DNA of 64,000 nt from positions 25,828 to 89,827 of IMG/VR virus record IMGVR_UViG_3300042894_002524; one strand, 5' to 3'. This DNA is from a virus. Below, piece after piece: positions 2,387-46,672 of the stretch (position 1 is its first letter; every line of letters starts with the position of its first letter). The position numbers and the translations under genes were made by a program. The notes beneath the pieces are model-generated. The model ran no database searches. It was not told the origin of the DNA and saw only the letters and a program-made list of their open reading frames with translations.

Positions 2387-2985
2387 TAGCGACCAACCTT
2401 TGGCATAATGACAGCAGTTCCGCAACCGACAGGGAAGTTGAGCATGTCATGTCCATACTTCGTTGACCAATCCACAGCAGCACGATAAGATCCGATGTCT
2501 GGATGATCATCATCAGAAGAATTCTTTGTGTCATGAACAGTAATAGCCCATACCTCATGTTTGTTCATCTTTGAACCATAATTCTCTAGGTCTTTATAAA
2601 CCTGCTCATATGTGTGGTCTGCATCAACATGCAGGTAGTCAATTGAATCAAACAATTGATGGCAGTTATCTGTCTTATCAACAATAAGATTAATTTCTGG
2701 GTAACCAATAATCCCTTCAGCGGTGTATATTGGTAAACCCCAAGGTCCAATGTTTGCATCAATCAAGTTGACATTATATTGACCAAGTAGACCTTCTTTA
2801 ATTAAAGACTTTTGTGATTCAACAGCCAACTTTGGTACAAAACCAGCACCGGAACCCAAGCAAACAATGCTACTCGCCCTCAAAGAATAAGGAAGTGCAT
2901 AGTAAAAAATCCCCATTCCAGCATGATTCCCCACTGTGCCATGAGATTCAGACCACTTGGAATTCTTAATAATATCATCAAACAT
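2386..2985 (-). CDS. Class I SAM-dependent methyltransferase (Methyltransf_24-like)
   Basis: VCLGSGAG, IDYLHVDADHTYE and VHDT motifs. Confidence 0.85.
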   Translation of the reverse strand: MFDDIIKNSKWSESHGTVGNHAGMGIFYYALPYSLRASSIVCLGSGAGFVPKLAVESQKSLIKEGLLGQYNVNLIDANIGPWGLPIYTAEGIIGYPEINLIVDKTDNCHQLFDSIDYLHVDADHTYEQVYKDLENYGSKMNKHEVWAITVHDTKNSSDDDHPDIGSYRAAVDWSTKYGHDMLNFPVGCGTAVIMPKVGR

Positions 2986-30000: not shown

Positions 30001-32909
30001 GACAAGTCCACAGCTGTAGCAGCAGCACCTGTTGGAGAAGGTGTTCCTGTTGCAGTTGTAGGCTTTTGTCCAAGTGTTACCGGAGTTACGACAGCGCCTG
30101 ACAATCCTGCGGGCGGTGCATTGGTTGGAGCACCGCTTGCAGCAGGAGATGGTCTTCCGGTTGCTGCTGCTTTTGCATTACAAACACAAGCTTGAATTGC
30201 TTGAAGAGTGGAAAGAATTTGGCTAAGGATATCTCTAAGTGTTGTAATACCCCCAATTGCTGATGTGATAGGGGCTGGAGTCGGAACTGCTGGTCCGTAT
30301 GGTGCAGCATCACGGACACCACCAGTCGCAGGATCAATACCCGCTCCTGTCGCATTATTTGATGCTCCTCTGATTCTAAGAAACTTTTGGGCTGCTTTTC
30401 TGAAAATGCTGGCTGTCTTTTTAGATTGCTCTTGAAGAAGTTCATTCACCATCTTGTTTGTTTGATAAATAGGATCTAATGACCTTACATAATCTTTTGT
30501 TGCTTGATCAAGACCGTAGAAATTCTTTTGCGATTGCAAAGCCGTACCATCTAGAACGGCTTTACGACCAGCCAGTTGCTTGATATACTTACCACCCTTT
30601 GATTTCTCCTTAGCAGTAAGCTCTTCTCCCCGATCTTGCTTTGCAATAATTGGAGCAAGTTTTTCAAGTCTCTTTGCATCTTTTCTAGAGGTAAAGATTT
30701 TTCCATCTTGTCCAAATTTCCTAAAGTTACCGCCAATTCTTAATGCAATGTCGCTTGTCTTCATGAGAGACTGATTTAGTTCAACAACATTTCCTTTAAA
30801 CCGTTTGATACCGCCAGCACGAACATTGTTGAATATCGCACCAAGCTGTCCTACTGCACCAATAGTTCTCATTAGTGGTCCAATAAGAGCCAATAGAATT
30901 AGCATTACTCCCAGTATTTTCTTAATTGGGTCCGAAAGTTCTCTAAAGAATTTAGCTATTCTTTCAATGATCGGGTTAATCTGTTCAAGAATTCCTCCAA
31001 ACACAGAGGTTAATTCACGAGCAATCGACTTAGCAGCCTCTCTTGCTTTACCATATTGAACTTCGACAGAGTTCCGTACACGCTCTAATTCGTCATTCTT
31101 ATTTTCTTCGGTTAAAGACTTACCATACAACTGAGCGGTAAGAAGTTTTCCTGATTCTGTTTGAATATTATTAAACTCTTTACCGAGTTTATTCTGTCTT
31201 TCTTGCTTCTTTGTATTATCAAGCATAACTTTTCCACTGTATTCATATTGAGTTATTCCATTTTTTTGGAGAGCTTGATTTGCATTTCTAAGGTTAAAAA
31301 GAGCTACCTCTTGTCCAGCCTGAATTGCTAAAGCTTTGGCTTTGTAATTTCCATCTTCATCCATCTCTTGAGCTGCAGATGTAAGATTGGCTATTTCTTG
31401 AAGATTCCCAATTTTTATTTCATCTTCTTTTTTGGTAAATCCACGAATTTTTAATTGAGTATTTATAGCATCCTCAGCCTGTTTTGCCATCTTTTGCTCT
31501 TGAGTTCCAACTGCTTTTAATCTCTTATCATATTTATTCATTTGAGCAATGGCAACTTCCATTCTTGGACCCTGACGAACACCAAACAATTTAGAGAAGA
31601 ATACTAATTGATCAGCTTTGCTAAGTTTTGCCTTAAGCAAATCATAGTTAGTAATAAGATCCATAAGTCCACCTGCACCCAAACCAAGAGATGGAGCAAA
31701 TTCCTTGCCAATAGTATCGCTTAAATCTTTAAGCATGTCTTTGTTCTGTTTGGTTGTTGCAACCATTCTCTGCAAAGAAACTTTAATGGAGTTCGCTGAG
31801 GCTCCAACCTGAAATGATGCACCAATCATTGGTACAAGCAATGCAGCTGTTGTTTGCATATTTAAACCAAAAGAGGTTGCAGCAGCGGTTACTTCAGGAA
31901 AGGCTTCTGCAATGTTATTAAGAGATAGCGTTGTTTTGTTTTCAGCAAAGTTGAAGAAAGCAATTGCTCCATTAATCTCTTCTGTCATCTGCTTAAGCGA
32001 CTTTTCACTCGTTACATCCAACCCCTTGTCTGTTCTAATTCTAGAAATAGTTTGGAACATAGCCTGAATTGTTGATTGAGCTTGTGTAATGTCAATATTA
32101 CCCAATTTTTCAAATTCAACAGTTAATTCAGTCAATCTCGCCAATGACTCTGGTGCAGAAATACCAAGCTCAGCAAAATCTCCAGCAAGACCCTGCACAA
32201 GTTCTCTTGATACACCCCATTTACTTGTGATTTTGTCAAGACCATCTCCAAGGGTTTTTACTGCATACTGAAGGTCGGTATATCCTTTTGCAGCCCCAGC
32301 TGTGTTCTTGACAGAATCATCGAAAGAGTCAGCCATTAGTTTGGTTGAACGAATGACTTGTTTATCTAACGCTCTGAATGATGAAAACCCCATCCGGAAG
32401 AAAGCAACAAGTGGCAGGGTGAGACCCATAGACATGCGTGTTCCAGCGTTGGTCATTCTTTGCGAGAATGCATTGAGTTGAGAACCCATTTGCTGGAAGT
32501 TCATTGCTCGCATTGAGTTTCCAATTTGTTTTTGCATGGAGTCCATAACTCTCAATTGAGTTATGTATGCACGGATAGGAACAGTATTTAACCCGGCGGA
32601 TTGCAGACGACCAAGTTGTGAGTTAAGAGCATCAGCCTGTATACGGCTATTTCGAAAAGAAGCTGACAATGCGTGTTGACTTAACGCATTACCTTTTAGA
32701 GATGTATTCAGCGAACTAGAGTTTCTTGAAAGTCTAGATATCGCTGCACCAACAGCATTGGTTGCACCAACAGCACTTTGACTTGTTGCTTTTAAACCAT
32801 TAAGAGAACGAACAGTGTTGCTTAATTGACCGTTTATGCGTTGAAGAGCAGCCGAAAGCCGGTCATTCATTTCGGCTCTAACTAGGATTTCGGCTTGTGC
32901 GTCACTCAT
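21006..32909 (-). CDS. Tape measure protein (3967 aa) with C-terminal peptidoglycan-binding-like domain
   Basis: MSMGLTLPL core, hydrophobic helical repeats, GGEYVI motif, follows tail chaperones; AALKSFQ...DGNLGPSTAKAL near C-terminus. Confidence 0.95.
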   Translation of the reverse strand: MSDAQAEILVRAEMNDRLSAALQRINGQLSNTVRSLNGLKATSQSAVGATNAVGAAISRLSRNSSSLNTSLKGNALSQHALSASFRNSRIQADALNSQLGRLQSAGLNTVPIRAYITQLRVMDSMQKQIGNSMRAMNFQQMGSQLNAFSQRMTNAGTRMSMGLTLPLVAFFRMGFSSFRALDKQVIRSTKLMADSFDDSVKNTAGAAKGYTDLQYAVKTLGDGLDKITSKWGVSRELVQGLAGDFAELGISAPESLARLTELTVEFEKLGNIDITQAQSTIQAMFQTISRIRTDKGLDVTSEKSLKQMTEEINGAIAFFNFAENKTTLSLNNIAEAFPEVTAAATSFGLNMQTTAALLVPMIGASFQVGASANSIKVSLQRMVATTKQNKDMLKDLSDTIGKEFAPSLGLGAGGLMDLITNYDLLKAKLSKADQLVFFSKLFGVRQGPRMEVAIAQMNKYDKRLKAVGTQEQKMAKQAEDAINTQLKIRGFTKKEDEIKIGNLQEIANLTSAAQEMDEDGNYKAKALAIQAGQEVALFNLRNANQALQKNGITQYEYSGKVMLDNTKKQERQNKLGKEFNNIQTESGKLLTAQLYGKSLTEENKNDELERVRNSVEVQYGKAREAAKSIARELTSVFGGILEQINPIIERIAKFFRELSDPIKKILGVMLILLALIGPLMRTIGAVGQLGAIFNNVRAGGIKRFKGNVVELNQSLMKTSDIALRIGGNFRKFGQDGKIFTSRKDAKRLEKLAPIIAKQDRGEELTAKEKSKGGKYIKQLAGRKAVLDGTALQSQKNFYGLDQATKDYVRSLDPIYQTNKMVNELLQEQSKKTASIFRKAAQKFLRIRGASNNATGAGIDPATGGVRDAAPYGPAVPTPAPITSAIGGITTLRDILSQILSTLQAIQACVCNAKAAATGRPSPAASGAPTNAPPAGLSGAVVTPVTLGQKPTTATGTPSPTGAAATAVDLSNLSDEELAASKARLEKEAKQLEAEAKETAKILAKAEKEKRKLAEKQYKNALKKKLFSTESVVGALKPQLNVRSGLPANFMNPMAMMNAMKPTMPEIPAGGDILKPAIDKGMHAVAEAVMVSIGKKPVAPAASPIPAAIEAATATAEETVATDVKQKAKRGRGRPKAAGPIPAAIDIAVAEGEKTVAEAIVADTKKTRGRPKGTTKKPAVTPAVSTAQRDYAAVDGFGRAVSGPNKATVDLEAAGASIKKLLNLEGTAKSAILTKDSLIKLFTILGQDVPVKLRQLDSLVNKEGEAIKVNLSTLGKIAGAIKTGVAGKALAPDAKVGAAFTGTSAKTSPFYAKNFNEAVSSSVGNIKYKPVTAIKPEDIAVAKESVAQVTEFEKERQILKDKIKILADQARVIKGKIDDLVAQESRAAKVGNLSLARVLQIKILSEKRKMSDVQRAISELKRTTDLINTELQSVRQSANLAFNNAQQQIASSGGVPFAGAKGKGMPFGSTTARARAKRTGERYTGLVYGGRDSKGDPTEELRERREVTRPSYSRNDPEEKDRQARRVALRPKRKAGIELLRQAVTQQPDYIEREKRRVAQAARDAEFAAKQEADRLAKQQEAALKKLGVKPEKVEPVQSSPIKRGFMSKEQFLAGQAENLQSLNEQIKAANDSARSAKRAVKNLETQIQEVTESKKRIPGGKKNAIDELTTRLEDAKKKAEQAKAAAKAAKDDIARINAYDPAKGGLPPKPVAPDISAAVRPKSLSAGVPTGATTLGNINSQLSATLQIPTAVLDQFYQTLKIQGKGLAEVASNAGLQATDDLALLKQELLKIGLTIEQALAKPAETLKQLQAVKFQDSGEVQALFQRLVMFARDVANKGVEKAFQDTIARFQNLKPGAAVKPASAKPASAPANKAAYGFGLESADQKILAEQIKSQIIAQNKAAIDFMKFETKTLEYIGRAFAIEGRGKGKKEVVVANLIKKLKEMGIAVEKAIVTEAIAPINAAKDAVTTTAATAAGASVGKPKAPVTAQPGNVIGNLGATQIQNFMSIANSVSEDSATFATQVNRLAQKAGLEGQETSVIIQKILSAFEVYLKNNGLTEAQLRQADALLREIATGTARPFSVAASKVYESARGSKEEPKASGLRGKAVGATADETAKVVEAEKNLTVAVEKTIADAAKAVTISANAAANPRLAAIASGVKLSPLASPTTGVAGPKATDATPAVAVRTPYSMPYINEINSQAINTKAVADSIAENIRLASSGTAKKVQSMLSGIQELVRSVHGAQIAKDFAFITGGNITDALKYLDRIIQEKLVKEAEKVKAVADTVKVAPVAPAPPVAPKPPVATAPVYPAPPSKPMLMLNAAKESPRRAAAQAKAAAAAVGTVGTTPIEMPRARVNLREMIAERLAIKATMEAETAAMAERIRSNVALSQAIRERSRAMDVANRSDRVQKLIDATPIPPRPSAGRNRIPLTREEFTGQTIAKTANVMFNPIKQVKVIGSALGSIGGALESVAKRVSPKRFGDQNVYKARDYMGEARRTTFGRIADRNLQVTSRQSRIAEKDARVIAKETRATDRPNRNIARLTQSQLPSQFRQAINPSIDTLKAIAKTYGPPIKSAMNFAKKKSIEGLKIAGQVTRELTLLPVRVPIVFTTGLIEAHKFAMKGVRAGIAKLDSIAFFNTTYTGAAIITLAITLEKGLTKLGSAMTMGGQALLTSGQIAAKFVQTAFTNPKQALAMASTGLTNSKDLLFKAGAGLVAAASSIKVGAIKLAQSAGSAAVAGAKMAGGAIGKAAMAPVRGVKTMFVGGSTFVPQGTDAAGNAIATKKGGLFRRSVTQTTDATTGMMTEQRGKGMFGRMKGGLGKGVMGGIRGLGTAAGSMSSMMLYQLGPAGMALQGPLNKVIGLLTKTKGAFFGVTIPILLVVGAIFLLKKTFSAYGDKTTGVAENFKKAFAAVMVVVNMLKTAFFDFFASLFGGAESSGEATGNIATVVTKVAEATRKFAVAFQAFFTKYILPAIYTMLSGFSMIIRAIFSFVSNLVKFVMAIVSFFRGGGDKAKEAMVSAMKGMLKAIVNALKGLLKMVLPMLSLLIKAVTKVVELIVQLFEWLVIGVINLIRYMVKGVINLVFTIVKAYVFIIDKIIELFVLLETTAIKIATEMVIAVIKIFFGIVKGTVAVVKGIISIWAKLPAGVGKGIGMIGSLIAGLMRGIGDKLAGLWGIGGKLKDALYSVADGFEKASNAVEGVGGAATAKLESGIDAIFTPLENGISGLQNKAVGLVRGISGALIKGVSSLNGVGDAVMNVVQGIQNKLLGSVDIAADTANAFIGGFSDAIAGAGNGIVDWLAGLVDGNDIKEKIGDSLKDAVKNVAKDPSAANEAGRAIADAIGEGIKSLKDNFYDKVISNLSDSLGKLKDQITKALEKQKDQSLKFFDDQIAAIDALAAADAELTAEKQKQEDERLRIAERALQRDSYLKNRALAIYEGRIDDARTLGLEEAKNQQEFNKETEKNAKDAQAAAKAKNVEAAKKVIENQKQVASDQFDKDLEDFQTFIENIGKNGTLTAAELTTQFNELKARADLTSSGMQAAFQGYYNALPTLIANNTAPTVGFFTSSMDALIAGAAAKYGLDTGTTDPATMLGITNGMMSNLGTVYTTGFTTVVAPAYNDGQELLAGIAREFADPSASNPKSAAGIYASAIANATAAVRAEFMKMKTDASSAFAEVVAAINDELKGLAITKAIADAAEELKNTGGGTAPSGGSATSPATGVTGPTAPTGFGPLGLTQTAFEALAGKDRLFKLNDSNDYIKSAKAALAFYGYTGFDVNSTKMGTGTVAALKSFQKKYPVGGNNDGNLGPSTAKALGLFSGVGVQKKFMGGMIKRAVGGVVPGYSTEGVPAILHGGEYVISSKAVQNLGLGLLTQLNGLKHGVPSFNVPKPQMPSASGLNMSVTSHSQSETTQNYNFYVDNFIGEDQWFESMMKDYNIKVVPNNQKAAGLESRVVRTYNGINRGM

Positions 32910-35281: not shown

Positions 35282-35667
35282 GATGGTTCAACCACATTTC
35301 TGATAACGGCTAGAATATGAGACTTACGACCATTGAACCCAAATTTTGGCTGGATTGATATAATCTCAAAAGGACCAGCCTCTAGAACATCACCATATTT
35401 GTCTTTTATGTTTTGGACTCTGTTTGTATAATCAATATAGTCAGAATACTCACCCGGAATAAAGAGCTGATGAATAGAAATATAATCTTGGTAGGGGGCG
35501 ATTCTTTTACCACCATTACTGGTGTCCGAACTGCTGGATTGAATATAGATCGGTGCCGTTTTAATCAGGTTATATTGGAATGTCTTCTGTCCAGCAGGAC
35601 TGACAGTTGTTACCTTCTGATAAATGTCAGCGGTTTGGTTAAACCGTAAATAAGTTCCGAATGCCAT
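35278..35667 (-). CDS. Head closure (stopper) protein
   Basis: Size, beta-rich pattern ADIY...G...FEIISI; synteny. Confidence 0.65.
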   Translation of the reverse strand: MAFGTYLRFNQTADIYQKVTTVSPAGQKTFQYNLIKTAPIYIQSSSSDTSNGGKRIAPYQDYISIHQLFIPGEYSDYIDYTNRVQNIKDKYGDVLEAGPFEIISIQPKFGFNGRKSHILAVIRNVVEPS

Positions 35668-36593
35668 TAGACCACATAATCCATCACAAACAGTGTGTAA
35701 TCCATCAAGTAGACATCAGCTTCAATATTCCCGGTTGATTCATAGAACGACTGTTTCATCTGCATCTTAACAACATCCATATCAACGCTATGAATTCCAT
35801 GCCTTCTGTATTCAGAATCGTCATTCATCAAGTCAGCAATCAGGAGATCAGCTGCAAACTTCACATTGTTAGGTACATAGCCCCAACCGAAGTCTCCTTC
35901 AATCTTGTACTCTCTTTTTGCTTTCCATGAGTTGGGAACAATCAGGGTATCGTTCTTATCAATCGTATCTGATTTGAAACGAATGTAATAAGAAGCTTCA
36001 AAGTTTAAAGGCTGCTTAACTCTCTCAACATTATTAACTGTTGGCAAGGTTGCATCAAACAGAACCTCTTCGTATGTACGACCCGGATCTTGGGTAACTT
36101 TGGTTAAATTATAAACAGGGTATGGGAGATGAAGGTTTGCGTGATTGTTTCCATCAATTGTAATGGACTTGTCTGGGTAGTAATCAAATGACTGACCGCA
36201 GTAGGTGTCAATGATTGCCCTGACCCGCTTTTCGTATCGGTCAAAGAGTGACCCTTTAGACTCTTGCAATTCCGGATAGGAAATGAAGAAATCAGCAGCA
36301 GTAGTGTAGGGGGTATAGACATTAATGTACTGAGCCTGTGTATATGAAACCCCAGAAACCGTATAGGTGAATTCTGTACGGTGCCTGCCTGCTGCATTTA
36401 AAATATAGATACCAGACGCTTGCTGTCCCAATGTTATTGTATAAACGCCTGCAGAGGCTCTAGAGGCACTCACAGGACCGTGTACAAGGTCTCCCAGCTC
36501 ATGATAAACAGAGACACTGACCAGATTTGAAGTGGGGTCAGCGGGGAGAGTGAGGGTTAGGGTCTTGGATGTGTTTACTTTTACATCTTCCAT
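35667..36593 (-). CDS. Head-to-tail adaptor with N-terminal Ig-like domain
   Basis: IIDTYCGQSF and FGWGYVPNNVKFAADLL adaptor motifs; AGVYTITL Ig-like N-terminus. Confidence 0.8.
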   Translation of the reverse strand: MEDVKVNTSKTLTLTLPADPTSNLVSVSVYHELGDLVHGPVSASRASAGVYTITLGQQASGIYILNAAGRHRTEFTYTVSGVSYTQAQYINVYTPYTTAADFFISYPELQESKGSLFDRYEKRVRAIIDTYCGQSFDYYPDKSITIDGNNHANLHLPYPVYNLTKVTQDPGRTYEEVLFDATLPTVNNVERVKQPLNFEASYYIRFKSDTIDKNDTLIVPNSWKAKREYKIEGDFGWGYVPNNVKFAADLLIADLMNDDSEYRRHGIHSVDMDVVKMQMKQSFYESTGNIEADVYLMDYTLFVMDYVV

Positions 36594-36634: not shown

Positions 36635-36925
36635 CTAAAACCACCAAAAATGCTTTAGAATAGACAAGCTGGCTAGGATTACCCATAGCACATTGAAAAG
36701 GATAATTGTTGGCAAGGTCTTGCGGGTTGATGTCCAGATAAGACTTATGCTTGAGATGATGGCAAAGATATATAACCACCACCATTGTTTATCAAGAAGA
36801 AGACCCGGAAAGATGATTGCAATCTTTGTTGCAAAACCCCAAGCTTCCACTGAGTTAACCCTTGTCCAATAAGAACGACTACTCATCGTCTTGATTGCGT
36901 CAATTATCTTCTTAAAGAATACCAT
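36635..36925 (-). CDS. Small membrane protein (about 3 TM)
   Basis: Three hydrophobic segments; last gene of the oxygenase/halogenase run. Confidence 0.7.
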   Translation of the reverse strand: MVFFKKIIDAIKTMSSRSYWTRVNSVEAWGFATKIAIIFPGLLLDKQWWWLYIFAIISSISLIWTSTRKTLPTIILFNVLWVILASLSILKHFWWF

Positions 36926-37674
36926 TTTTTTCTTTCAATATCTTGATCATACTTCATTCTAATTCTTCTATAGAGCTGGCTATTATCCTGTTGCGAAAGA
37001 CTACCCTTACCAATCTCTTTCCCCATTCCATTTCCAATGTGAAATCTAGACATGCTTTCATTCCCAAAAACAAGTTTTTTAATATTCTCATTTCTTTTGA
37101 TGGGAACCATATGCTGCATGGGTGTACCGGCAGGAATTGTGAACTCTTTGTCAGTTAGAACGGATATTACAATATGTAATTGATTGTAATAATCTGTATG
37201 AACAATACCGGGCATAACCGTGTAATTCGGGTTTGGCTCATGGAGAATAGGCAAAGCCATCAAGGAAATACCTTTTGGTGTAAAATACCTCCAAGGAGTC
37301 ACGAGTTTTGGATAATTAAAATTTTTTAATTTTCGATTTTCGCCAAAAGGACAACCTTTTGCCATTTCAGTGCTAAAGCCATCTACATGAAAAGCGTAGT
37401 CATCACCATAGTTTCCTAGTTTATATTCAAATCTTACACCAGAAGCGTCTGGTCTAACCGTTACATCTGTCCACATAGGTATAATAAAACCATACTGGAG
37501 ATAGTCATAAGTTCCGTTGCACCTTCTTAGAGACATATCTTTAACAGGGAGATCCTTCCACCAAGATGGCAGATTCCCTTGAGCAGCATAGGGGGCGATA
37601 TCCAGCAAGCGATTGTCATTGGGGACAATTACAACCTCATTCTTTTTTGGTCTGGGGGTATCCCCCCTGAACAT
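36904..37674 (-). CDS. Phage protein of DUF6065-like/dUTPase-fold type
   Basis: PSWWK...RRC...GFIIPMW...PW...TPKG...PGIVHTD...IPAGTP...VPIKR pattern; likely start MFRG. Confidence 0.6.
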   Translation of the reverse strand: MFRGDTPRPKKNEVVIVPNDNRLLDIAPYAAQGNLPSWWKDLPVKDMSLRRCNGTYDYLQYGFIIPMWTDVTVRPDASGVRFEYKLGNYGDDYAFHVDGFSTEMAKGCPFGENRKLKNFNYPKLVTPWRYFTPKGISLMALPILHEPNPNYTVMPGIVHTDYYNQLHIVISVLTDKEFTIPAGTPMQHMVPIKRNENIKKLVFGNESMSRFHIGNGMGKEIGKGSLSQQDNSQLYRRIRMKYDQDIERKKWYSLRR

Positions 37675-37681
37675 TGCAATT

Positions 37682-39151
37682 TTATAATTGTATTTCTTTG
37701 AGCGATTGCGCATGGTCCACCTTTGCATGGTCTGATTGTTTCATTTTAGCAGAATACATTGCTGTCTTTACAGAATCTCGAATATTAAAACGATAAATAG
37801 ACAATGAAGAAGCTTCTTGCGAAAGAACCTTTTGCCCTTGAGCTACATGATAAAAATGAGGGACATGGAACATCTCATAATTACTTGTTGGTATGTCATT
37901 ATAGAATGGAGGTCTTTCACTCCATAAATCTAATAAGTTCTGTAAATACTCCGGCACTGGGGTGTTCGCTTGGTTTACCCACATTTCACTATCTCTTCTA
38001 TCAGATATGTAATGAAGATAGATCATTGATAAAATATTCTGCATCATGATGTTCATCTTCTTGTTGTATTCATTCTGAACAGCTGTATGACCAATCTTGT
38101 ATGAAGACAGATTCTCCACCAAACACCTCATTTGCTGAATTGTCCCGCCAATAGAAGACGCTTCGATTGGTTCAACAAAAGCAGAAGACAGACCAATTGC
38201 AACGCAATTCTTTACCCACATTTTCTCAAGATGACCGGGATCAAATTTAATAGTCTTTACTGGCTGAACTTGGAATCCCAGCAGAGCTGACACTTCAGAA
38301 ATAGCTTGATCGTCAGAGCAGAAGTTTGAGGAATAGACATACCCATTACCCCGTCTTTCCTGAGTTGGAATCTCCCAAACCCATCCATTCTGAATAGCCC
38401 TAGCCCGAGTGTAGGGTCTGATTTCCCCAGAAGGGTCAGATTGAGTCGGGAAAGGAATCGCCGAGTTCATCTGCAGGTGATTGGAGAAAGACTTCCATTT
38501 AGCATCACTCACCTCTGATATAAGAATGCGACTCATTCCTGATGCATCAATCCAAAACCCCGCCTCAAGCACATCCCCGTTTTCCAATAGAACTGATTCA
38601 ATATGCCCATTCTCATTATCCAAATTTGTTTGAACAATCTTGCTATCAATAAAACGAATATTTCTTTCTTTACATAATCTTGTCAAATACTTATTAAGAA
38701 GCACAGTATCAAAATGGAACTGATTCACTGACTCATGTGGTCCATTAGCGCGAACTTTGTTTTCTATCATCGCTCTTGATGAGATATTCTCAGTTAATGT
38801 TTTATTGTTCTCAATAAGACCATTATATAAACCGTAAAAGTTGTAATAACCGATAGTGCTTGCATCGCTAACGCTATGGAAGTAATCGGGGGTATGGCTT
38901 GTCCAATTCTCAAACCGAATCCCATTCTTATGCGTTGCTTTTGTTTCATTCAAAAGCTCTCCAAGAGAGATGTTGCATGCATCCATAAACATACGCCAAT
39001 GCTCTGTTGATCCCTCACCAACACCGATAATCCCTACTTGAGATGATGATATCACTGTGATATTCATCAAGGGAAAAGCTGACCGTAACATGATTGCCCC
39101 GACCAAGCCAGCTGTTCCACTTCCAATAATAGCTGTTTCAATATCAATCAT
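37682..39151 (-). CDS. Flavin-dependent (tryptophan halogenase-family) halogenase
   Basis: GSGTAG, IGVGEGS, catalytic-Lys region ATHKNG, WVWEIP (WxWxIP), FVEPIEAS. Confidence 0.93.
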   Translation of the reverse strand: MIDIETAIIGSGTAGLVGAIMLRSAFPLMNITVISSSQVGIIGVGEGSTEHWRMFMDACNISLGELLNETKATHKNGIRFENWTSHTPDYFHSVSDASTIGYYNFYGLYNGLIENNKTLTENISSRAMIENKVRANGPHESVNQFHFDTVLLNKYLTRLCKERNIRFIDSKIVQTNLDNENGHIESVLLENGDVLEAGFWIDASGMSRILISEVSDAKWKSFSNHLQMNSAIPFPTQSDPSGEIRPYTRARAIQNGWVWEIPTQERRGNGYVYSSNFCSDDQAISEVSALLGFQVQPVKTIKFDPGHLEKMWVKNCVAIGLSSAFVEPIEASSIGGTIQQMRCLVENLSSYKIGHTAVQNEYNKKMNIMMQNILSMIYLHYISDRRDSEMWVNQANTPVPEYLQNLLDLWSERPPFYNDIPTSNYEMFHVPHFYHVAQGQKVLSQEASSLSIYRFNIRDSVKTAMYSAKMKQSDHAKVDHAQSLKEIQL

Positions 39152-40215
39152 GAATTGATGTTCTTGACTCTTTTATATTGTGCTATATATTTCTTAATAT
39201 AGCCCGGTGTATTATCGGATTGGTAAATTGTTTCCAAGTCTGCAGAAGACGAAACTTTTATGTCATGCTCGAAGAAGTATTCAAACAATAATCCTTCAAA
39301 GTGTTTTAAATAATTATCAATTAGTGCATCATCGAATATATCTAAATCAAGGGATTCTTGTAGCTCATACAAGCTTGGATAAGAGTAGTGTCTTTTAATG
39401 TAGTTAGAAAAACTTTCTGGCATTTCATACTTACCTCTATTCTCAATCTCATTAGACCTCTCAAGGTCTCCCCTTATATATCTAGCTAAAGCCATATCGC
39501 CAGTTGATGATATAATTTCTGACATTATCTCATCATCCAAGTTTAAAGATTGTAAGAAAAGTACTGCACTGCTTGCGATTTCTTCTTGATTATTAAAAGG
39601 CTCTTCAGAAACAATAGACCACTCATGAAGCACTTTCATCATACCTGTCAAGGTTTTGGCTGCACAATATTCACCACGGGTATTCGCATTCAAGTTCCCT
39701 GTATTACTGGTCCCTATCCTGACAACATGACCGACACCAGTAACACTCAGGACATAGCAAATGCTTACAATATCGTAACCAGTTTGAGGCTCGTAAAAAG
39801 ATACCCCTCCTAGCTTCCTATAATCACATCGAACAAAATCATCCCTAATGCCTAAACCTTCTGTATTATAAGACTCATCAATAATAGAATTATTCTCTTG
39901 GACCTTAGACCCTAGGAAAAGGTAAAAGTTGTATCCGCTTTGAGTCGTTTCATTTAAAACAAAGTTCAAGGCTTTTGTATCAGAAGTCATCTGGACAAGA
40001 TCAACTTTTTGACCCGTTATCTTTAAGTCATGAAATCCAGCATAAGTTTCTTTCCTAAAACAAATAATAGTGCCAGAATCTATTTCGAAGAAATCGCACC
40101 CTAGGAAGTCCACATAGCCCGATTCAACCCGGACCTCTGCTTTGAATGGCTGTTTTTGGTCAGTAAATGCAAACCAAGAATAAGCATTGATATCGATATT
40201 ACTTAAACTACTCAT
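39148..40215 (-). CDS. Hypothetical protein
   Basis: Overlaps the oxygenase and halogenase genes; no recognised motif. Confidence 0.75.
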   Translation of the reverse strand: MSSLSNIDINAYSWFAFTDQKQPFKAEVRVESGYVDFLGCDFFEIDSGTIICFRKETYAGFHDLKITGQKVDLVQMTSDTKALNFVLNETTQSGYNFYLFLGSKVQENNSIIDESYNTEGLGIRDDFVRCDYRKLGGVSFYEPQTGYDIVSICYVLSVTGVGHVVRIGTSNTGNLNANTRGEYCAAKTLTGMMKVLHEWSIVSEEPFNNQEEIASSAVLFLQSLNLDDEIMSEIISSTGDMALARYIRGDLERSNEIENRGKYEMPESFSNYIKRHYSYPSLYELQESLDLDIFDDALIDNYLKHFEGLLFEYFFEHDIKVSSSADLETIYQSDNTPGYIKKYIAQYKRVKNINS

Positions 40216-40811
40216 CGGAACCATGTTACCAGACTATATTTTACACCGCTTTTGACGGGATGAGCAATATGAGTATATGGAAAATTAGACGGGAAAAGGA
40301 TCAAAGAATTTTTTTCTAGCTTCACTGTCAAGTCAAAATTGTTAAACTCCAACTCTCCGCCTTCAAAATTATCACCAAGACATGCAACCAAACTTAGAAC
40401 TCTTGAGTTATCAGGGCTATGGTCGTGATGGATATGATATTCCCCTCCATCCATATATTTCAGAAGAGAGAACCCTGAATCCGCTTTTAGATTCAAATCA
40501 AAACATGTTCTATAATCCCATATACATTCGTCAATCTTAGTAAAAATGTCATTCATAAAAATATCTTGAAGTGGTTTTAACTTTTCATTGATTGTTTCAG
40601 AAAAAAAAGGATTCATTGGCATTTCAAGAGATGTACGGTATTCGCTAGTTTGCTTTTGGTCACCATCCCCAGTTGCTGAGTACGACCAGTCAATTAATGC
40701 CCAGTCTTCTTCTGTCTCTTTCTCAACTAATTCACAAAAATTTTTACTATCAAAAGCATCTTTGTAAATCCAAATACAAGGCGCTTTTTCCTCTTTTTTA
40801 ATTGACAACAA
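40212..40811 (-). CDS. 2OG-Fe(II) oxygenase (prolyl 4-hydroxylase-like)
   Basis: LLKY..G..Y..HHD, FEGGEL, LFPSNFPYTH, PVKSGVKYSLVTWF. Confidence 0.93.
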   Translation of the reverse strand: MLSIKKEEKAPCIWIYKDAFDSKNFCELVEKETEEDWALIDWSYSATGDGDQKQTSEYRTSLEMPMNPFFSETINEKLKPLQDIFMNDIFTKIDECIWDYRTCFDLNLKADSGFSLLKYMDGGEYHIHHDHSPDNSRVLSLVACLGDNFEGGELEFNNFDLTVKLEKNSLILFPSNFPYTHIAHPVKSGVKYSLVTWFR

Positions 40812-41217
40812 AAGAAAACTCCTCTTCTATTTTTTGATCAACGACTATTCTACAGGAATAATCACCAACATCTTTACAGAGATGTATGAATTTTGCAACA
40901 TGAGATTCTTCGTATACAGGCTTTATTAGGTCATTATTAATAAACAAATCAACTTTATTCTTTATAACACAAAATTCATTTTTATATTTAATATTTTGGT
41001 GAAAACCTTCTTTAACGGATTTTAAAAAGAAATAACCTTTGTTTTGAGGCACAGAAACAACCAATACTTTTCCTCTATCAAAGTCTAAATCCGCTGTGTG
41101 GTCATTATCCCCAACTATAATCTGCAGATAGGTTTTTCTAGCGAGAGATGAAGCTTCTTCTAAAAATTCACTAGATGGACAATATATGACCCTATCCATA
41201 TTACTGAATCGAGTCAA
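40798..41217 (-). CDS. Hypothetical protein
   Basis: Overlapping ORF in a coupled run. Confidence 0.7.
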   Translation of the reverse strand: MTRFSNMDRVIYCPSSEFLEEASSLARKTYLQIIVGDNDHTADLDFDRGKVLVVSVPQNKGYFFLKSVKEGFHQNIKYKNEFCVIKNKVDLFINNDLIKPVYEESHVAKFIHLCKDVGDYSCRIVVDQKIEEEFSFVVN

Positions 41218-41434
41218 TAATGTTTTGAATATTTACAATTTTCTCGCTAAGAATATTCACTTGAGCATATGATGCAGCCTGAACTGGGTCTGTTATTTCT
41301 GAAGGGCTGGGGACAACGAAGGTTTCGGGGTTCTCCCCTAGCAATACGATTTCCCTGTAGTAATGCATCTCCAGTGTGTCCAACGCATGTTGAGCCATTT
41401 CTTTTTTCTTTTCATTTGAAAGTCTAAATTCCAT
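41201..41434 (-). CDS. Hypothetical small helical protein
   Basis: SD GAGGA; follows the His-rich gene. Confidence 0.7.
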   Translation of the reverse strand: MEFRLSNEKKKEMAQHALDTLEMHYYREIVLLGENPETFVVPSPSEITDPVQAASYAQVNILSEKIVNIQNIIDSIQ

Positions 41435-41442
41435 AAGTCCTC

Positions 41443-42921
41443 TTATTGATTCAATATAGTAAGAACAGTGCCTGATTGACCTGTTCCACCACCAGATACA
41501 GTACCACCAACCACTGATGTTGCTACTGTGTTAGCGATTGAATCTGTAACGATAATTATACCACCACCACCACCAGTTACGCCAGAAGCACCTGCTGTTG
41601 AAGAACCTGCCACACCAGCTGCTCCTCCGGGATATACGGTACTACCTTGCGATGAAACCGTTCCAGCATTTCTAGCTCTGAAGTGGGAGTGGTTATTGTC
41701 ATGATGGTGTCTGGGATAATTACGATGACCATGCGCTGCGGGGTAATGACCTTTACCGAATATCTGAAGCTCTGCGGGGTCATGGAAACTAAAATGGGGA
41801 ACATCATGAATTGGGTTATAGCTTCCACTATAATGAGAATATTCAAATGTGTAAGCGACTCCGGGCTGGTTTCTATGGGAATGGTTGTGAGGAATGCCGT
41901 TAATTGCAGTATAGGTTCCTGTTAAGCCATTAACATGAGGCGTATCATTAAAGTCACTAAAGTGGTGAGCAAAAGGTCCACCGGCTGCGTTTCCGCCATG
42001 ATCTGCATCCCAGTTTCCATACACCTGATTATGAGTATGATGAACATTTCCTACATGTACATAACGATATGTATAACCATGCAATCTGTTCTGCGTAGCA
42101 GGAACATGCCCTCCATGTGGAAGGGCTGGAGCTGCAACTGAAGCATGAGGACCAGTTGTTCCATCACCAGTTATATAGTGAGCTGAGTTGTCAGCGAGGT
42201 GAGTTAGTGTTTGGTTAGGAGCAGCACTACCCGCACTTCCTGTTGAGCTATTTGCTCCAACATTTGCATTTTGCCCTTGAGCCAAAATTGTTCCTGATCC
42301 AGTGATTTGCTTGGCAACAATGAGGACAATACCCCCGCCGATTCCGCCAGTTCCTCCAGCAGACGCAGGTGGTGTTGTTCCGGCTGTACCGGCTCCACCT
42401 GCAACAAGAGGGTTCCTTGTAAGAGAAGCAGCACCGCCTGCTGTTGCAGGGGTTACGGTTCCATTAGCCCCAGTTACACCACCGGCTCCGCCTCTTATTG
42501 CAGACACTGTTCCTGCGGTATCTACTACAATTCCAGATATTAATAATTCAAGATTTTTCTTATCCGAATCGGTTATTTGAGAAGCTGTGAAAGTATTACC
42601 ACCCGAGTTTCCTCCGAGAGATTTTGCGATATTACCAGAACTAAGGAGCATACGCTCTGCAAGGGTCGAATTAAAATAAAGTTGTTGTGGGATGACTCCA
42701 ATATTTCCATCAAGAGTCAAAGATCCCTTAACAAATACACGATAACCATTAGTGTTTAGATGAACACCATTATTAACCGTTAAATTGTTATAATACATAT
42801 CTCTAGACAGTGATGTGTTGGAAGCAATTACTGTGTTGCCGTCTGACCCCGTTCCGTAAACAGAGTCATTACCGATTCTCTGTACTTTTGCGGGTGAACC
42901 GAATTTCTCTAAGCCAGCCAT
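41443..42921 (-). CDS. Gly-rich adhesin-like virion protein with His-rich insertion
   Basis: DSVYGTGSDG...YYNNLTV...NTNGYRVFVK, GG repeats, 29 His in about 173 aa. Confidence 0.75.
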   Translation of the reverse strand: MAGLEKFGSPAKVQRIGNDSVYGTGSDGNTVIASNTSLSRDMYYNNLTVNNGVHLNTNGYRVFVKGSLTLDGNIGVIPQQLYFNSTLAERMLLSSGNIAKSLGGNSGGNTFTASQITDSDKKNLELLISGIVVDTAGTVSAIRGGAGGVTGANGTVTPATAGGAASLTRNPLVAGGAGTAGTTPPASAGGTGGIGGGIVLIVAKQITGSGTILAQGQNANVGANSSTGSAGSAAPNQTLTHLADNSAHYITGDGTTGPHASVAAPALPHGGHVPATQNRLHGYTYRYVHVGNVHHTHNQVYGNWDADHGGNAAGGPFAHHFSDFNDTPHVNGLTGTYTAINGIPHNHSHRNQPGVAYTFEYSHYSGSYNPIHDVPHFSFHDPAELQIFGKGHYPAAHGHRNYPRHHHDNNHSHFRARNAGTVSSQGSTVYPGGAAGVAGSSTAGASGVTGGGGGIIIVTDSIANTVATSVVGGTVSGGGTGQSGTVLTILNQ

Positions 42922-42922
42922 A

Positions 42923-43651
42923 TTAAACCAATTGGGAGTAGATTACCGAACCTGAAACACAGCTTGTTCCGCCAGTCACATCTGTTGTGATTCCTGATGG
43001 CATTGTTGCGTATGTTGATACCAGAATGATTACTCCACCTCCCCCTCCGCCTGCTCCAGTTGCTCCAGCAGCGTCTAAGAATGAACTTGTGGCTGAAATA
43101 TACCTTGCTCCAATTATAAGAACTCCACCGCCTACACCGTTTGCTCCTCCAGCTCCGCCTCTAAGGAAGAGTGGGGTTGTATTGCTTGCATTAAGCACAT
43201 AGCCCTTAATAGACTGAGTTGGCTGATACCAATAACCACTTGTTGTTGTCTTATCCCCAGTTCCGCCTTGAGCTACTGATGGAACAGTTGCAGTCTGTGT
43301 TGCACTGTTTCCACCGAGACTGTTTGTCACAGCACCGGAAATACCTCCACCGCCTTGGATTGTTCCAACACCGGAAAATCCTGTATTCATCGTGTATGTG
43401 TTTGCTGTACCAACACCGATTGTTGAGTTAGAACTAAGAGTAAGGAGGTTCTTCACAAAGACACGATAGCCAGCCGTGTTTAAAACAACATCTGAGTCAA
43501 CAGAAAGATTGTAGTAAAACTGATCAGATGTCAATGTTGTATTTGCAGAGATAGTAACCGATCCATCAGAACCAGTCCCGTAAACTGAGTCGGCAGCATC
43601 AGCGAATGAAGCAAAAGCATTAAGTGCGGGGTAGCGTTCAAGACCAGCCAT
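42923..43651 (-). CDS. Gly-rich adhesin-like virion protein (paralog lacking the His insertion)
   Basis: Same MAGLE start, DSVYGTGSDG, GYRVFVK, SLGGNS and GGGGG-hydrophobic motifs. Confidence 0.75.
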   Translation of the reverse strand: MAGLERYPALNAFASFADAADSVYGTGSDGSVTISANTTLTSDQFYYNLSVDSDVVLNTAGYRVFVKNLLTLSSNSTIGVGTANTYTMNTGFSGVGTIQGGGGISGAVTNSLGGNSATQTATVPSVAQGGTGDKTTTSGYWYQPTQSIKGYVLNASNTTPLFLRGGAGGANGVGGGVLIIGARYISATSSFLDAAGATGAGGGGGGVIILVSTYATMPSGITTDVTGGTSCVSGSVIYSQLV

Positions 43652-44010
43652 TATGCCTCCTCAAAACCCATAAACATGATATTCACAGCAGAGTTTGCGG
43701 AAGTGAAAGCAACAAGCTGATCGCTATTTGTAGCATTTGCTGTGTTTCCATTATTAGTAAGGACAATTGAACATCCAAAAGAAATTGTTTCATTCGCATT
43801 GATGTTGAATGCGCTCATAAAATCTTGAGTATTGGCTTCTGCGACTCCGGCTGGCTTGAGTCTGATTGTTACAGTTTTGGCAGAAGCTGTTGTGTTGCAC
43901 ATAACAATTTGTTTTACAATTGAAGTTGTGCTTAATGGAGTTGTGTATTGGACAGTGTTAGCCGTAGTAATCTGGGTAGGTCCAGCCAGTCTTTTCTGAT
44001 TAATAGCCAC
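43651..44010 (-). CDS. Small beta-rich virion protein (paralog of 49021..49356)
   Basis: SIVKxIxxCNxT...NET...IVL...GxE shared with its paralog. Confidence 0.7.
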   Translation of the reverse strand: MAINQKRLAGPTQITTANTVQYTTPLSTTSIVKQIVMCNTTASAKTVTIRLKPAGVAEANTQDFMSAFNINANETISFGCSIVLTNNGNTANATNSDQLVAFTSANSAVNIMFMGFEEA

Positions 44011-44300
44011 TACAAAACCTCCATATAGAATTTGATCATATTGTCACGAACAGTATTCTTATTCACCCATGAACTACCATTATATTCTAAAATCTGCCCT
44101 AATGCTGGGGTTGTAATAATGACATCGGTTAAAGCATCAAGATCTACAGAGCCTCCGCTGCTAAACTGGACAATTGTATTGGAACCGTTTTTGTAAAAAA
44201 TCTTTCCATCGGCATAGTTAAGCCCCAGCTCACCATGCTCAAGTGAGGCTGGGACTGCCGAGGCTGTTCCTGAGTTTTTAATTTTAATGGTATTAGCCAT
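44010..44300 (-). CDS. Short fibre segment/adapter
   Basis: MANTIKIK...PASLEHGEL N-domain; LTDV...GQILEYNGSSWVN fibre repeat. Confidence 0.75.
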   Translation of the reverse strand: MANTIKIKNSGTASAVPASLEHGELGLNYADGKIFYKNGSNTIVQFSSGGSVDLDALTDVIITTPALGQILEYNGSSWVNKNTVRDNMIKFYMEVL

Positions 44301-44312
44301 TGCTTCCTCCTA

Positions 44313-45401
44313 TCAGAAGGTTCCGCCATCTACTGTATCAGACCAGTTTGGAACACCTGATACAATCTTGAGGAATTGACCTTCTGTTCCAACACCACGC
44401 TTGGATAGGGTGTTTGTCGCTGATGCGTAAATCAAATCACCAGTCGTGTAAGAGGTAAGACCAGTACCGCCATAAACTGTACCGATAGATGTACCATTCC
44501 ATACACCAGTCGCAATGGTTCCAACTGATGTCAAACTTGAGTTTATGATTCCTGAACCCAAAGTGGTATTTGAAAGAACTGAGGTTCCATTTACATAATA
44601 TGATTTAGCAGAGGCTAGGTTGAAGTGCTCAGAAGATGTCCATGCATCTGTTGCATCGACCCAGTTAAGAGTCTTATCTGTTGCACCTTTAATTGTGAAA
44701 CCGGCACCGTCTGCAGTCGTGTCTGTTGGTGTATCAACATTTGCAAGAACAATATTCTTGTCCTCAACCGTTAAAGTTGCGGTATTAAGAGTTGTTGTAT
44801 TACCATTAACAACAAGATCTCCAGTGATTGTAAGAGTATTAGATATTGTAACATCAGCTGGAAGACTAATTGTTACCGCTCCAACGCCTGAGTTAGAAAC
44901 AGCGATTTGATTTGCAGTACCCGTAAGACCAGTGACAAGATTTGTAGCTCTATCACTAACTTGTGAAGCCGTAATGGAGATTGTTGTATTGCCAGCAGCA
45001 GTTAAACGACCATCCGCTTGAACAGTAAAGGTACCTACTGTTCCTGCACCACCATAAGAACCAGCCGTTACTGCTGTATTGCCAAGAGAAACTCCAGCAA
45101 TAGCACCATCAACATAAGCCTTGGTTGTGGCATGCGTGTTTGCCGTTGGTGTGGGGACAATAACAACACCACTAAATGTCTTATTACCAGTTACCGTCTG
45201 GACCCCGGAAAGTGTGAGGTAGGCACCTGAACCAGCAACTGCCTCAACAGTTGTGGCAGTTCCACCTGCTCCACCTGTTCCCTTACCGTAGTAGAGGACA
45301 TCATCTACTTCATTATATGCAAGTTCTGCATTTTCCAAAGAGGCTGGCGCACCAGCTGCTCCTCCAGAAGCCCTTCTTTTAATTCTAATTGTATTAGCCA
45401 T
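44313..45401 (-). CDS. Fibre protein
   Basis: MANTIRIK...PASLENAEL N-domain, QTVTGNKTF, ATTKAYVD, VTAGSY and GGTG repeats; ends DGGTF. Confidence 0.85.
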   Translation of the reverse strand: MANTIRIKRRASGGAAGAPASLENAELAYNEVDDVLYYGKGTGGAGGTATTVEAVAGSGAYLTLSGVQTVTGNKTFSGVVIVPTPTANTHATTKAYVDGAIAGVSLGNTAVTAGSYGGAGTVGTFTVQADGRLTAAGNTTISITASQVSDRATNLVTGLTGTANQIAVSNSGVGAVTISLPADVTISNTLTITGDLVVNGNTTTLNTATLTVEDKNIVLANVDTPTDTTADGAGFTIKGATDKTLNWVDATDAWTSSEHFNLASAKSYYVNGTSVLSNTTLGSGIINSSLTSVGTIATGVWNGTSIGTVYGGTGLTSYTTGDLIYASATNTLSKRGVGTEGQFLKIVSGVPNWSDTVDGGTF

Positions 45402-46015: not shown

Positions 46016-46044
46016 ATTTTAGACGATATTACGCTTGTTATCAA
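46016..46044 (-). promoter_or_regulatory. Sigma70/SigA-type promoter for the fibre-oxygenase-halogenase run
   Basis: TTGATA-17 nt-TAAAAT, 9 nt before ATG 46006. Confidence 0.65.
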
Positions 46045-46139
46045 CAAACGCAGTCTTCACAGCCACATGTACATTGGTCAGTGCATTCACAACCGCAGGT
46101 ACAACTTTTTGATCTTGACTTTTCTAATTCACTCATCAT
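46041..46139 (-). CDS. Metallothionein-like Cys-rich peptide (32 aa; absent from ORF track)
   Basis: MMSELEKSRSKSCTCGCECTDQCTCGCEDCVC; ATGA overlap with endolysin stop; double stop TGATAA. Confidence 0.75.
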   Translation of the reverse strand: MMSELEKSRSKSCTCGCECTDQCTCGCEDCVC

Positions 46140-46672
46140 GCACCGGGCTTTGGCAAAGCCTTCCATGCTGCTTCCATCTTTGCTGCATCTTTTGCAAATT
46201 CAGCTTCAAATTCTAGGTGCAACCACTTGCCCCCAAAACTTCCTGCATTATCTTTTGAATCATAAATCTTGACTGACTTTGGGTCCGAGCCTTCACCACG
46301 GGAGCAGCGATAACCTCTTCCGTAACCGGGCTTTCCATCTTTAGCATTTGCATCAAATGCATAATCATGGATTTCAACAATACCTAATTCTTTCGTATGT
46401 GCAAGGAACCAGTCCCACATAGCAAGACCGACTTTACGATCTGAATAACCAATATCGCATGCAGCTCCAGTTGAGTGAACACTAAGCCACTTTTCCATTC
46501 CGGGATCACCAATCTTCTTACCTTCTGTATGAGAGTTTCTCATCAATCTTGCGGAATATATTCCTAGATTTGTAGCCTTCCAACGGCGACCACAAGCGCC
46601 AACGAACCACTCAACGCCAGCTCCTGCTTTTTTTCCGTCAAAAGCGGGATAATAGGGGTACTTGCGAGCCAT
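46136..46672 (-). CDS. Endolysin, M15-like Zn peptidase
   Basis: SVHSTGAACD and WLHLE motifs; coupled to a holin-like gene; start MARKY. Confidence 0.75.
   Translation of the reverse strand: MARKYPYYPAFDGKKAGAGVEWFVGACGRRWKATNLGIYSARLMRNSHTEGKKIGDPGMEKWLSVHSTGAACDIGYSDRKVGLAMWDWFLAHTKELGIVEIHDYAFDANAKDGKPGYGRGYRCSRGEGSDPKSVKIYDSKDNAGSFGGKWLHLEFEAEFAKDAAKMEAAWKALPKPGA

Follow-up and report, generated by a model that had tools for sequence, protein, structure and literature searches.

We analysed a window of 64,000 nt from the 89.8-kb IMG/VR virus record IMGVR_UViG_3300042894_002524, in which positions 36635–43651 hold a compact module combining a histidine-rich, fibre-like protein with a 2-oxoglutarate (2OG)-Fe(II) oxygenase and a flavin-dependent halogenase. 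Every open reading frame (ORF) of the module is present and is read from the minus strand. Taken in the order in which it is transcribed, the module starts with two glycine-rich proteins, namely glyA242 (42923–43651; 242 amino acids, aa), a short predicted beta-helix paralog without an insert, and His492 (41443–42921; 492 aa), in which a Gly-rich beta-helix scaffold is predicted to carry an inserted His-rich beta domain. These are followed by the small ORFs s77 (41201–41434) and s139 (40798–41217), the latter encoding a small protein between the His-rich protein and the oxygenase, by the prolyl 4-hydroxylase (P4H)-type oxygenase gene oxy199 (40212–40811), by u358 (39148–40224), by the BrvH/VirX1-like halogenase gene hal489 (37682–39151), by d274 (36904–37728), which encodes a DUF6065-related protein with a predicted dUTPase fold, and by m96 (36635–36925), whose 96-aa product is a small membrane protein. 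Neighbouring genes overlap by 4–47 nt or are separated by gaps of 1–41 nt. Directly upstream lies g119 (43651–44010, minus strand; 119 aa; phrog_20100, E 2e-12), a part of the fibre module whose homolog stands immediately 5' of the Gly-rich pair in most loci. The coupled gene run, the 29-histidine stretch, the oxygenase and the halogenase with intact motifs proposed in the initial annotation are all borne out by ORFs, profiles and motifs, as is the membrane protein, the product of 36635–36925 being hydrophobic and Trp-rich. Searches of Pfam and PHROGs gave nothing useful for s77, s139, u358, m96, His492 and glyA242, and an ESM Atlas search with u358 yielded no lead. The ORF s77 has tblastn hits in its closest relatives L002, L005 and L012 only (32–82% identity; L-numbers label comparison loci throughout), s139 has homologs in about 30 loci (27–70% identity), and those of u358 occur in a subset of related loci (22–38% identity).

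BLASTP aligns the first 177 residues of the two Gly-rich proteins at 39% identity (E 2e-21), which identifies them as paralogs, and the short form stands beside the long one in nearly all related loci. His492 contains 30 histidines, 29 of which fall within residues 241–415, and histidine makes up 14.9% of the insert compared with 1.5% of the products of 11 other genes in the window. The scaffold comprises approximately residues 23–235 and 430–492, and the insert approximately residues 236–430 (DNA positions ~41632–42216). An AlphaFold2 model of the whole protein as a monomer, based on 82 homologs, has a mean predicted local distance difference test (pLDDT) score of 86.9, with most of the His-rich part modelled as beta strands and one weak loop at residues 296–308. 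The top 50 hits of a VIA-wide structural search with this model are beta-helices, including bactofilin, filamentous haemagglutinin, autotransporter passengers and a tailspike, with alignments across residues 23–492 and Z scores of 6–8.8; since Z scores up to 8.8 are also reached by unrelated models, these hits speak to the general architecture only. No matches were obtained by Foldseek with the His492 model or by searching PDB sequences with the protein's profile A2. On the basis of the model, we read the Gly-rich N- and C-terminal parts as forming a beta-helix, with the His-rich domain placed between its rungs and glyA242 representing the scaffold alone. The initial annotation had described the His-rich part as an insertion, which is accurate relative to the short paralog; the domain is not private to this phage, as it is conserved across a large family.

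In a large protein collection, His492 has at least 273 homologous clusters at E <= 0.001, and the best 120 of these 273 (36–87% identity) all contain 20–38 histidines in their best 175-residue window. Several histidine columns are well conserved, most strongly H345 (99%), followed by H241 (90%), H259 (88%), and H319 and H349 (both 87%); at the column of H305, His is found in 80% of homologs and Asp in the window's own protein. Among distant homologs the insert varies in length from about 100 to 250 residues and its sequence is almost wholly changed, yet it stays His-rich: histidine accounts for 10–35% of the insert across the family, the count per 175 residues ranges from 9 to 60, and different loci show different short repeats, some of them composed of His, Pro, Gly and Asn. 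Because His-richness is kept despite this turnover of sequence and length, the selected property appears to be composition together with a few fixed positions. A candidate HxH iron motif was dropped, as HxH is not enriched beyond composition (6 occurrences, with 4.1 expected from shuffles that preserve composition; p 0.22). The scaffold family extends far beyond its enzyme-linked subgroup. The N-terminal 50-residue motif region of the scaffold also occurs in metagenome bins from many phyla (Patescibacteria, Planctomycetota, Actinomycetota, Bacillus; L148–L195), mostly without the enzymes.

By profile and motifs, hal489 is a flavin-dependent halogenase. Its PF04820 match scores 345 bits (cut-off 21; E 7e-103), its GxGxxG motif (GSGTAG at residue 10) has all three glycines conserved in 100% of 73 sequences, and its WxWxIP motif (GWVWEIP at 256–262) is conserved at W257 (100%), W259 (82%), I261 (97%) and P262 (99%). 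The equivalent of PrnA K79, the chloramine-forming lysine, is K75, which aligns with the lysine of BrvH (6frl), and the candidates for the catalytic glutamate, equivalent to PrnA E346, are E327 and E330; all three residues are 100% conserved in the 73 sequences. The nearest solved relatives are BrvH (6frl, E 3e-56), a Xanthomonas enzyme (6y1w), 2pyx and VirX1 (6qgm, E 8e-40). A flavin reductase (PF01613) was not found in the 89.8-kb record, so that a host reductase would be needed. No natural substrate is known for BrvH-, VirX1- and Xcc-type halogenases, whose active sites are open. VirX1, from cyanophage Syn10, is described as trimeric, its site being large and accessible, with no natural product listed for it (PMC8407142), and a review considers the role of phage halogenase unknown (PMC2984593). 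The window's enzyme belongs to the same family and shares the motifs of these halogenases, but it is only 28–40% identical to those of cyanophages, and the halogenases at least 45% identical to it form a clade that nearly always lies next to the His-rich protein.

The oxygenase oxy199 matches PF13640 with 53.6 bits against a cut-off of 27 (E 4e-14). Its iron triad and 2OG-binding residues are conserved in 89 sequences (H128 99%, D130 99%, H181 98%, K191 89%), and the active-site residues of the two enzymes are 89–100% conserved. Its solved relatives are restricted to collagen-type P4Hs of Bacillus anthracis, with a weak match (E 0.006). No second PF13640 gene was found in the 89.8-kb record, where the sole other match is below threshold, and none of the ORFs matches a cupin or JmjC family. 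The AlphaFold2 model of d274 (pLDDT 86.7) has dUTPases and dCTP deaminase as its best Foldseek matches (E 1.6e-4), and residue C70 is invariant in 42 sequences. Homologs detected by tblastn include Syn9 gp43 and genes in Syn10, S-RIM4, P-TIM40 and haloarchaeal tailed viruses. Although d274 has no Pfam DUF6065 match at E <= 10, it falls into ESM Atlas clusters in which 11–23% of members carry PF19541, and the label DUF6065-like is therefore acceptable. The gene directly follows the halogenase gene in 88 of 95 loci.

The central observation is the association of the halogenase with the His-rich insert, which we scored from both sides. On the side of the Gly-rich protein, 80 IMG/VR loci retrieved with His492 and 65 retrieved with hal489 were each scored, and a locus was considered informative if it was distinct, encoded a complete long Gly-rich protein, and either extended for 7 kb or more downstream or showed a halogenase (n = 80). 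The halogenase accompanies every protein with at least 15 His per 175 aa (56 loci with, 0 without); at 9–14 His per 175 aa there are 3 loci with and 14 without it, and below 9 there are 0 with and 7 without. Seen from the other direction, all 21 halogenase-free informative loci (21/21) are below 15 His per 175 aa. For halogenases at least 45% identical to hal489, the gene order is the same in nearly every locus. On the enzyme side, d274 served as the anchor, and of its best 80 of 186 matches, 67 loci had enough upstream DNA; the halogenase is present in 67/67 and the His-rich Gly protein in 66/67. Five of these 66 proteins had been missed by the BLAST filter and were found by inspection, for example that of L227 with 59 His. 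The co-occurrence across phages that the initial annotation had suggested as a check therefore holds for 56/56 His-rich loci and for 66/67 loci from the enzyme side, with the exceptions and the small number of independent contrasts described below.

Loci without the halogenase differ in their inserts. A halogenase-free clade (19–21 tree rows) has Tyr-rich (up to 71 Tyr), collagen-like Gly-x-Pro or charged-repeat inserts, and it keeps the oxygenase together with two or three d274-like (DUF6065-like) paralogs and further ORFs of 160–430 aa. Examples from this sister clade (L022, L031, L033, L046, L047, L053, L069) show Gly-Ser/Asn/Thr-Pro runs and a repeat of the 'NEVRLVE' type. In L150, a contig from a Verrucomicrobiales bin (870–2630, 2646–3245), the same scaffold carries an insert with 24 Cys and 4 His, and the oxygenase is kept; hal and d274 are cleanly absent relative to the sister locus L147, with flanks otherwise collinear, even though L150 is a close sister of the halogenase-bearing L147, L149 and L123. 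Finally, L199 lacks the enzymes altogether, and its insert is unbiased. The oxygenase is thus found with the His-rich group, with the Tyr-rich and collagen-like group and with the Cys-rich L150, but not with the unbiased L199, and the enzyme set appears to change with the insert type. Among 22 more distant relatives in bacterial metagenome bins, no insert bias was seen, and no enzymes were detected by BLAST.

The same kind of enzyme set follows Gly-rich fibre-region proteins in three lineages that involve two unrelated Gly-rich families. A PF21722 'glycine-rich domain' protein, of whose 309 residues 96 are Gly, stands in L136 and L139 directly 5' of an array of five 2OG oxygenases, a halogenase, another oxygenase and a DUF6445 protein. 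In Syn9 (L196, 27931–43144), the fibre gene gp34 and the Gly-rich gp36 (35% Gly), gp38 and gp39 (both PF21722) immediately precede an enzyme array (gp41–54) that contains two halogenases, gp43 and dioxygenases. In distant phages, the halogenase is still grouped with 2OG oxygenases in or beside structural genes; it adjoins two LtfC-like genes in P-SSM2 and lies between terminase genes in HTVC008M. An expanded array is seen in L128 (9474–14632), where three tandem halogenase paralogs occur with a d274 homolog in a run of about fifteen ORFs of ~200 aa. In one locus group, a 985-aa collagen-like protein with long Gly-Ala/Pro-Thr/Gln-Gly triplet runs is encoded directly 5' of the module of g119, Gly-rich pair and enzymes (L227, 183–3140); it is a possible further substrate for the P4H-type oxygenase.

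The trio of dioxygenase, halogenase and dUTPase-fold protein has itself been known since 2010. Iyer, Abhiman, de Souza and Aravind described a Syn9-type cluster in which tandem dioxygenases and Trp-halogenases are joined by a dUTPase-fold protein that has a conserved Cys, as well as clusters in bacteria that combine JmjC, halogenase, TonB receptor and SapC; their proposal was that the trio makes halogenated, hydroxylated amino-acid-derived metabolites, and that collagen-like and tail-collar proteins encoded in different operons are dioxygenase substrates (PMC2938197). The module studied here resembles the Syn9 cluster in having a classical 2OG-Fe(II) dioxygenase, a halogenase with the conserved Lys and a dUTPase-fold Cys protein, and both lie downstream of fibre or Gly-rich genes. 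In contrast to Syn9, the window encodes one dioxygenase rather than ten and one halogenase rather than two, has no detectable JmjC/MINA-like member, and belongs to a freshwater siphophage with a His-rich-insert beta-helix protein; in the passages of PMC2938197 consulted, the published phage cluster is not tied to a protein substrate. In our literature search, no paper connected these enzymes with a virion protein rich in His or Gly.

The module sits among virion genes, in agreement with the structural-region position given in the initial annotation. Upstream of it, in order of transcription, are the genes for terminase, portal and major capsid protein (PF05065, phrog_1623), a lysis-like region, fibre-like genes and g119; the fibre-like run before g119 includes an LtfC-like protein and PHROG tail-fibre matches at 44010–45401, and a head-tail adaptor gene (35667–36593, phrog_442) is next on the 3' side of m96. 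The promoter that had been placed at about 46016 was not upheld. The sigma-70-like site at 46044–46016 matches the consensus at 10 of 12 positions, but such sites are rarer in the region (27) than expected from shuffles (35.9), and therefore this one carries no weight. A 41-aa ORF with a Cys-rich tail containing CxC motifs (46041–46166, minus strand) overlaps the end of a 202-aa gene just 5' of the fibre module; should the fibre bind metal, this ORF might matter. Elsewhere in the window, after the tail tube and chaperone genes, a single 3967-aa ORF (21006–32909, minus strand) is presumably a very long tape measure protein. The most conserved gene of the module is m96, with a median identity of 84% (44 loci); the medians of its neighbours are 53% (halogenase), 42% (oxygenase) and 36% (d274). 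The m96 stretch is also present, with variants, on lake contigs of other phages. Among the cultured phages of INPHARED, no His492 or m96 homolog was found, where a low-complexity filter may mask part of His492.

Of the 31-mers sampled from the 7-kb stretch, 94–100% occur in each of 24 metagenome runs from freshwater or lakes (2016, 2020 and 2024), and contigs from four of these 24 lake runs show zero differences across His492; neither population hypervariation nor a diversity-generating mechanism at His492 was seen on these lake contigs. Together, the 31-mers and contigs indicate a persistent lake phage whose insert is not hypervariable within the population. An assignment as a marine phage was ruled out by this freshwater and lake occurrence. 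One related locus comes from a metagenome bin labelled 'SP', which may stand for South Pacific; if so, the module is also found in the sea. The capsid protein is closest to those of Streptomyces siphophages (~50% identity) and the G+C content is 40%, which suggests a freshwater actinobacterial host.

We tentatively favour, at a probability of roughly 45%, the view that this is a conserved phage module pairing a fibre-tip protein with enzymes that tailor the adjacent fibre protein. The support counted for it consists of co-inheritance seen from both sides, halogenase-free lineages with non-His inserts, conserved insert composition, constrained active sites, recurrence of the enzymes behind Gly-rich proteins elsewhere, and chemical precedents in animal materials. 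Under this proposal, late in infection and in the host cytoplasm, the oxygenase would hydroxylate residues of the Gly/Pro-rich scaffold, most likely prolines, as in substrates of collagen-type P4Hs. The halogenase would take host-reduced flavin, O2 and a halide (chloride in a lake host) and target electron-rich side chains of the insert, such as His imidazole, Tyr or Trp, or it may oxidise them through cryptic halogenation, with the dUTPase-fold d274 acting as its obligate partner. The product would be a chemically modified and probably metal-binding distal domain serving adsorption or stability of the fibre tip. The narrower version, in which the halogenase and d274 halogenate His and/or Tyr of the fibre-tip domain to give a metal-binding adhesin, seems to us rather doubtful. 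If correct, it would provide the first natural substrate of a viral halogenase, the first example of a flavin halogenase that works on a protein of full length, and the first halogenated virion.

Two kinds of known halogenation offer comparisons for such chemistry. RiPP (ribosomally synthesized and post-translationally modified peptide) halogenases such as MibH and SrpI are flavin-dependent halogenases that act on nearby-encoded ribosomal peptides with a short leader and core, in which Trp is halogenated. The window's enzyme would likewise possibly act on a ribosomally made polypeptide encoded nearby, but His492 is 492 aa long, models as folded (pLDDT 86.9) and contains a single Trp; Pfam and PHROG searches of the module ORFs revealed neither a protease nor a RiPP recognition element (RRE) family, and a leader was likewise not found. 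The description as RiPP-like was consequently abandoned, the protein having no leader/core layout and no associated protease. The enzymes behind halogenation in Nereis and sponge materials are not known to be flavin halogenases. In these animals, 5-bromohistidine occurs in sponge skeletons (PMC8659048), and the His/Gly-rich Nereis jaw protein Nvjp-1 is associated with Zn and halogens (PMC13120676). The resemblance lies in a His/Gly-rich structural protein, in the combination of Zn with halogenation, in naturally halogenated His and in protein-hardening chemistry; the animal materials are extracellular and have no homology to the phage protein, so the analogy is one of mechanism only.

Several points weigh against tailoring of the fibre protein. 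No flavin-dependent halogenase is known to act on His or on a folded protein. The compact insert, as modelled, with position-specific histidines is what would be expected of an unmodified structural metal-binding domain. The sole published reading that we found for the trio is small-molecule synthesis (PMC2938197). On a tree of 103 scaffolds, from which the insert was left out, there are just three changes of halogenase state (a single one with no more than the first 81 rows), and although the three contrasts are concordant, the sign test gives p = 0.25, significance being out of reach with three independent contrasts. A further search with L150 and alignment A3 added one new informative locus. 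The large counts thus represent a very stable linkage over deep divergence rather than many replicated events, and most of the 56/56 is shared descent. The locus L279 has hal and d274 without a Gly protein in 10 kb upstream. There are also soft exceptions: L103, L123, L143 and L149 carry the halogenase with only 8–13 His, L149 being Tyr-rich instead, and the halogenases of at most 43% identity (L127–L146) have no His-rich neighbour. In the P-SSM2 and HTVC008M genomes, no homolog of the His-rich protein was found with profile A2. The proposal in the initial annotation that the insert is the enzyme substrate is accordingly supported in part, as to the genetic coupling of halogenase and His-rich insert, with three independent contrasts.

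The alternative that survives best, which we regard as a serious possibility although an unlikely one, is that the His-rich domain stays unmodified and binds metal (Fe, Zn, Ni or Cu), serving in receptor binding or stabilisation, while the enzymes make a small molecule or modify a host component in a region that tolerates accessory genes. The near-fixed positions of H345, H241 and H259 and the folded model of the insert fit this explanation, as does the secondary-metabolite synthesis to which Iyer et al. assigned the trio (PMC2938197), and T4-like cyanophages and pelagiphages do have halogenases without this protein. A precedent is the T4 gp37 needle with its His-coordinated iron (Bartual et al. 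2010, as cited in PMC11705849), in which seven Fe are held by His pairs; the Ferrojan Horse idea extends this to aquatic phages (PMC11705849). Like gp37, His492 has a His-rich part that would belong to the distal portion of a phage fibre, and metal coordination is plausible for it. It models, however, as a beta domain inserted on a beta-helix and not as an intertwined trimeric needle, it is much more densely packed with His (29 in 195 residues, and as many as 60 per 175 among relatives), searches with its profile and with the monomer model gave no match to gp37 in sequence or fold, and HxH is not enriched. Further points against this alternative concern the enzymes: a hitch-hiking cassette would be unlikely to hold gene order and translational coupling down to 45% halogenase and 30% Gly-protein identity, the halogenase is lost exactly where the insert type changes (L150), and the enzymes recur beside unrelated Gly-rich proteins in Syn9 and L136.

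Known Gly-rich adhesins provide a further comparison. S16 gp38 and Pam3 gp24 are Gly-rich adhesin tips with hypervariable ends (PMC9608196). As is predicted for His492, Gly-rich motifs frame variable segments at the distal end, and S16 gp38 also has a beta-helix domain. On the other hand, PF21722 misses both Gly-rich proteins of the window, 6F45 is not among the top structural matches of His492, the variable part here is one domain of 100–250 residues rather than a set of short loops, and S16 gp38 and Pam3 gp24 are not known with tailoring enzymes.

An improbable alternative is that the enzymes do tailor virion proteins, but that they act on the Gly-rich scaffold or some other part of the fibre and not on the insert, for instance by hydroxylating prolines of Gly/Pro-rich rungs or of the upstream collagen-like fibres, the link between halogenase and insert then being common descent. 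The oxygenase indeed occurs with several insert types and with insert-free Gly-rich proteins, its nearest solved relative is a collagen-type P4H, the scaffold has near-invariant prolines (P185, P235, P265 and P268), and collagen-like fibres lie upstream in some loci (L227); the Gly-rich proteins of Syn9 and L136 stand beside halogenases without any His-rich insert. Common descent does not readily account for the three halogenase-free lineages, which all have no His-rich insert even though the sister clade and L150 keep the oxygenase, nor for the fact that, with the sequence turning over strongly, His-richness is retained only alongside the halogenase. Most improbable is the absence of any functional link, with one successful aquatic siphophage lineage having been sampled and a cassette having landed near fibre genes by chance: this agrees with the three halogenase-state changes on the tree of 103 scaffolds and with the confinement of all halogenase-bearing His-rich loci to one large clade, but this clade is deep (30–50% protein identity) with an intact cassette and conserved catalytic residues, the same enzymes adjoin Gly-rich proteins in unrelated myoviruses, and L150 shows a precise deletion of hal and d274.

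Ever since the first cyanophage genomes appeared, 'tryptophan halogenase' and 2OG-oxygenase genes of phages have been catalogued, and one of them (VirX1) has been characterised as an enzyme. The module described here provides a specific, testable candidate for the substrate of a viral halogenase, namely the neighbouring, co-inherited fibre protein, whose insert composition follows the enzyme set. If the proposed tailoring is true, hydroxylation and halogenation would be added to the means by which phages diversify their receptor-binding proteins, and halogenase enzymology would gain a protein substrate. It would also bear on the debate about how much trace metal the tails of aquatic phages bind, because the His-rich domains contain 25–60 His each. 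Even if the tailoring proves false, these His-rich phage proteins of lakes and oceans form a large class not described before.

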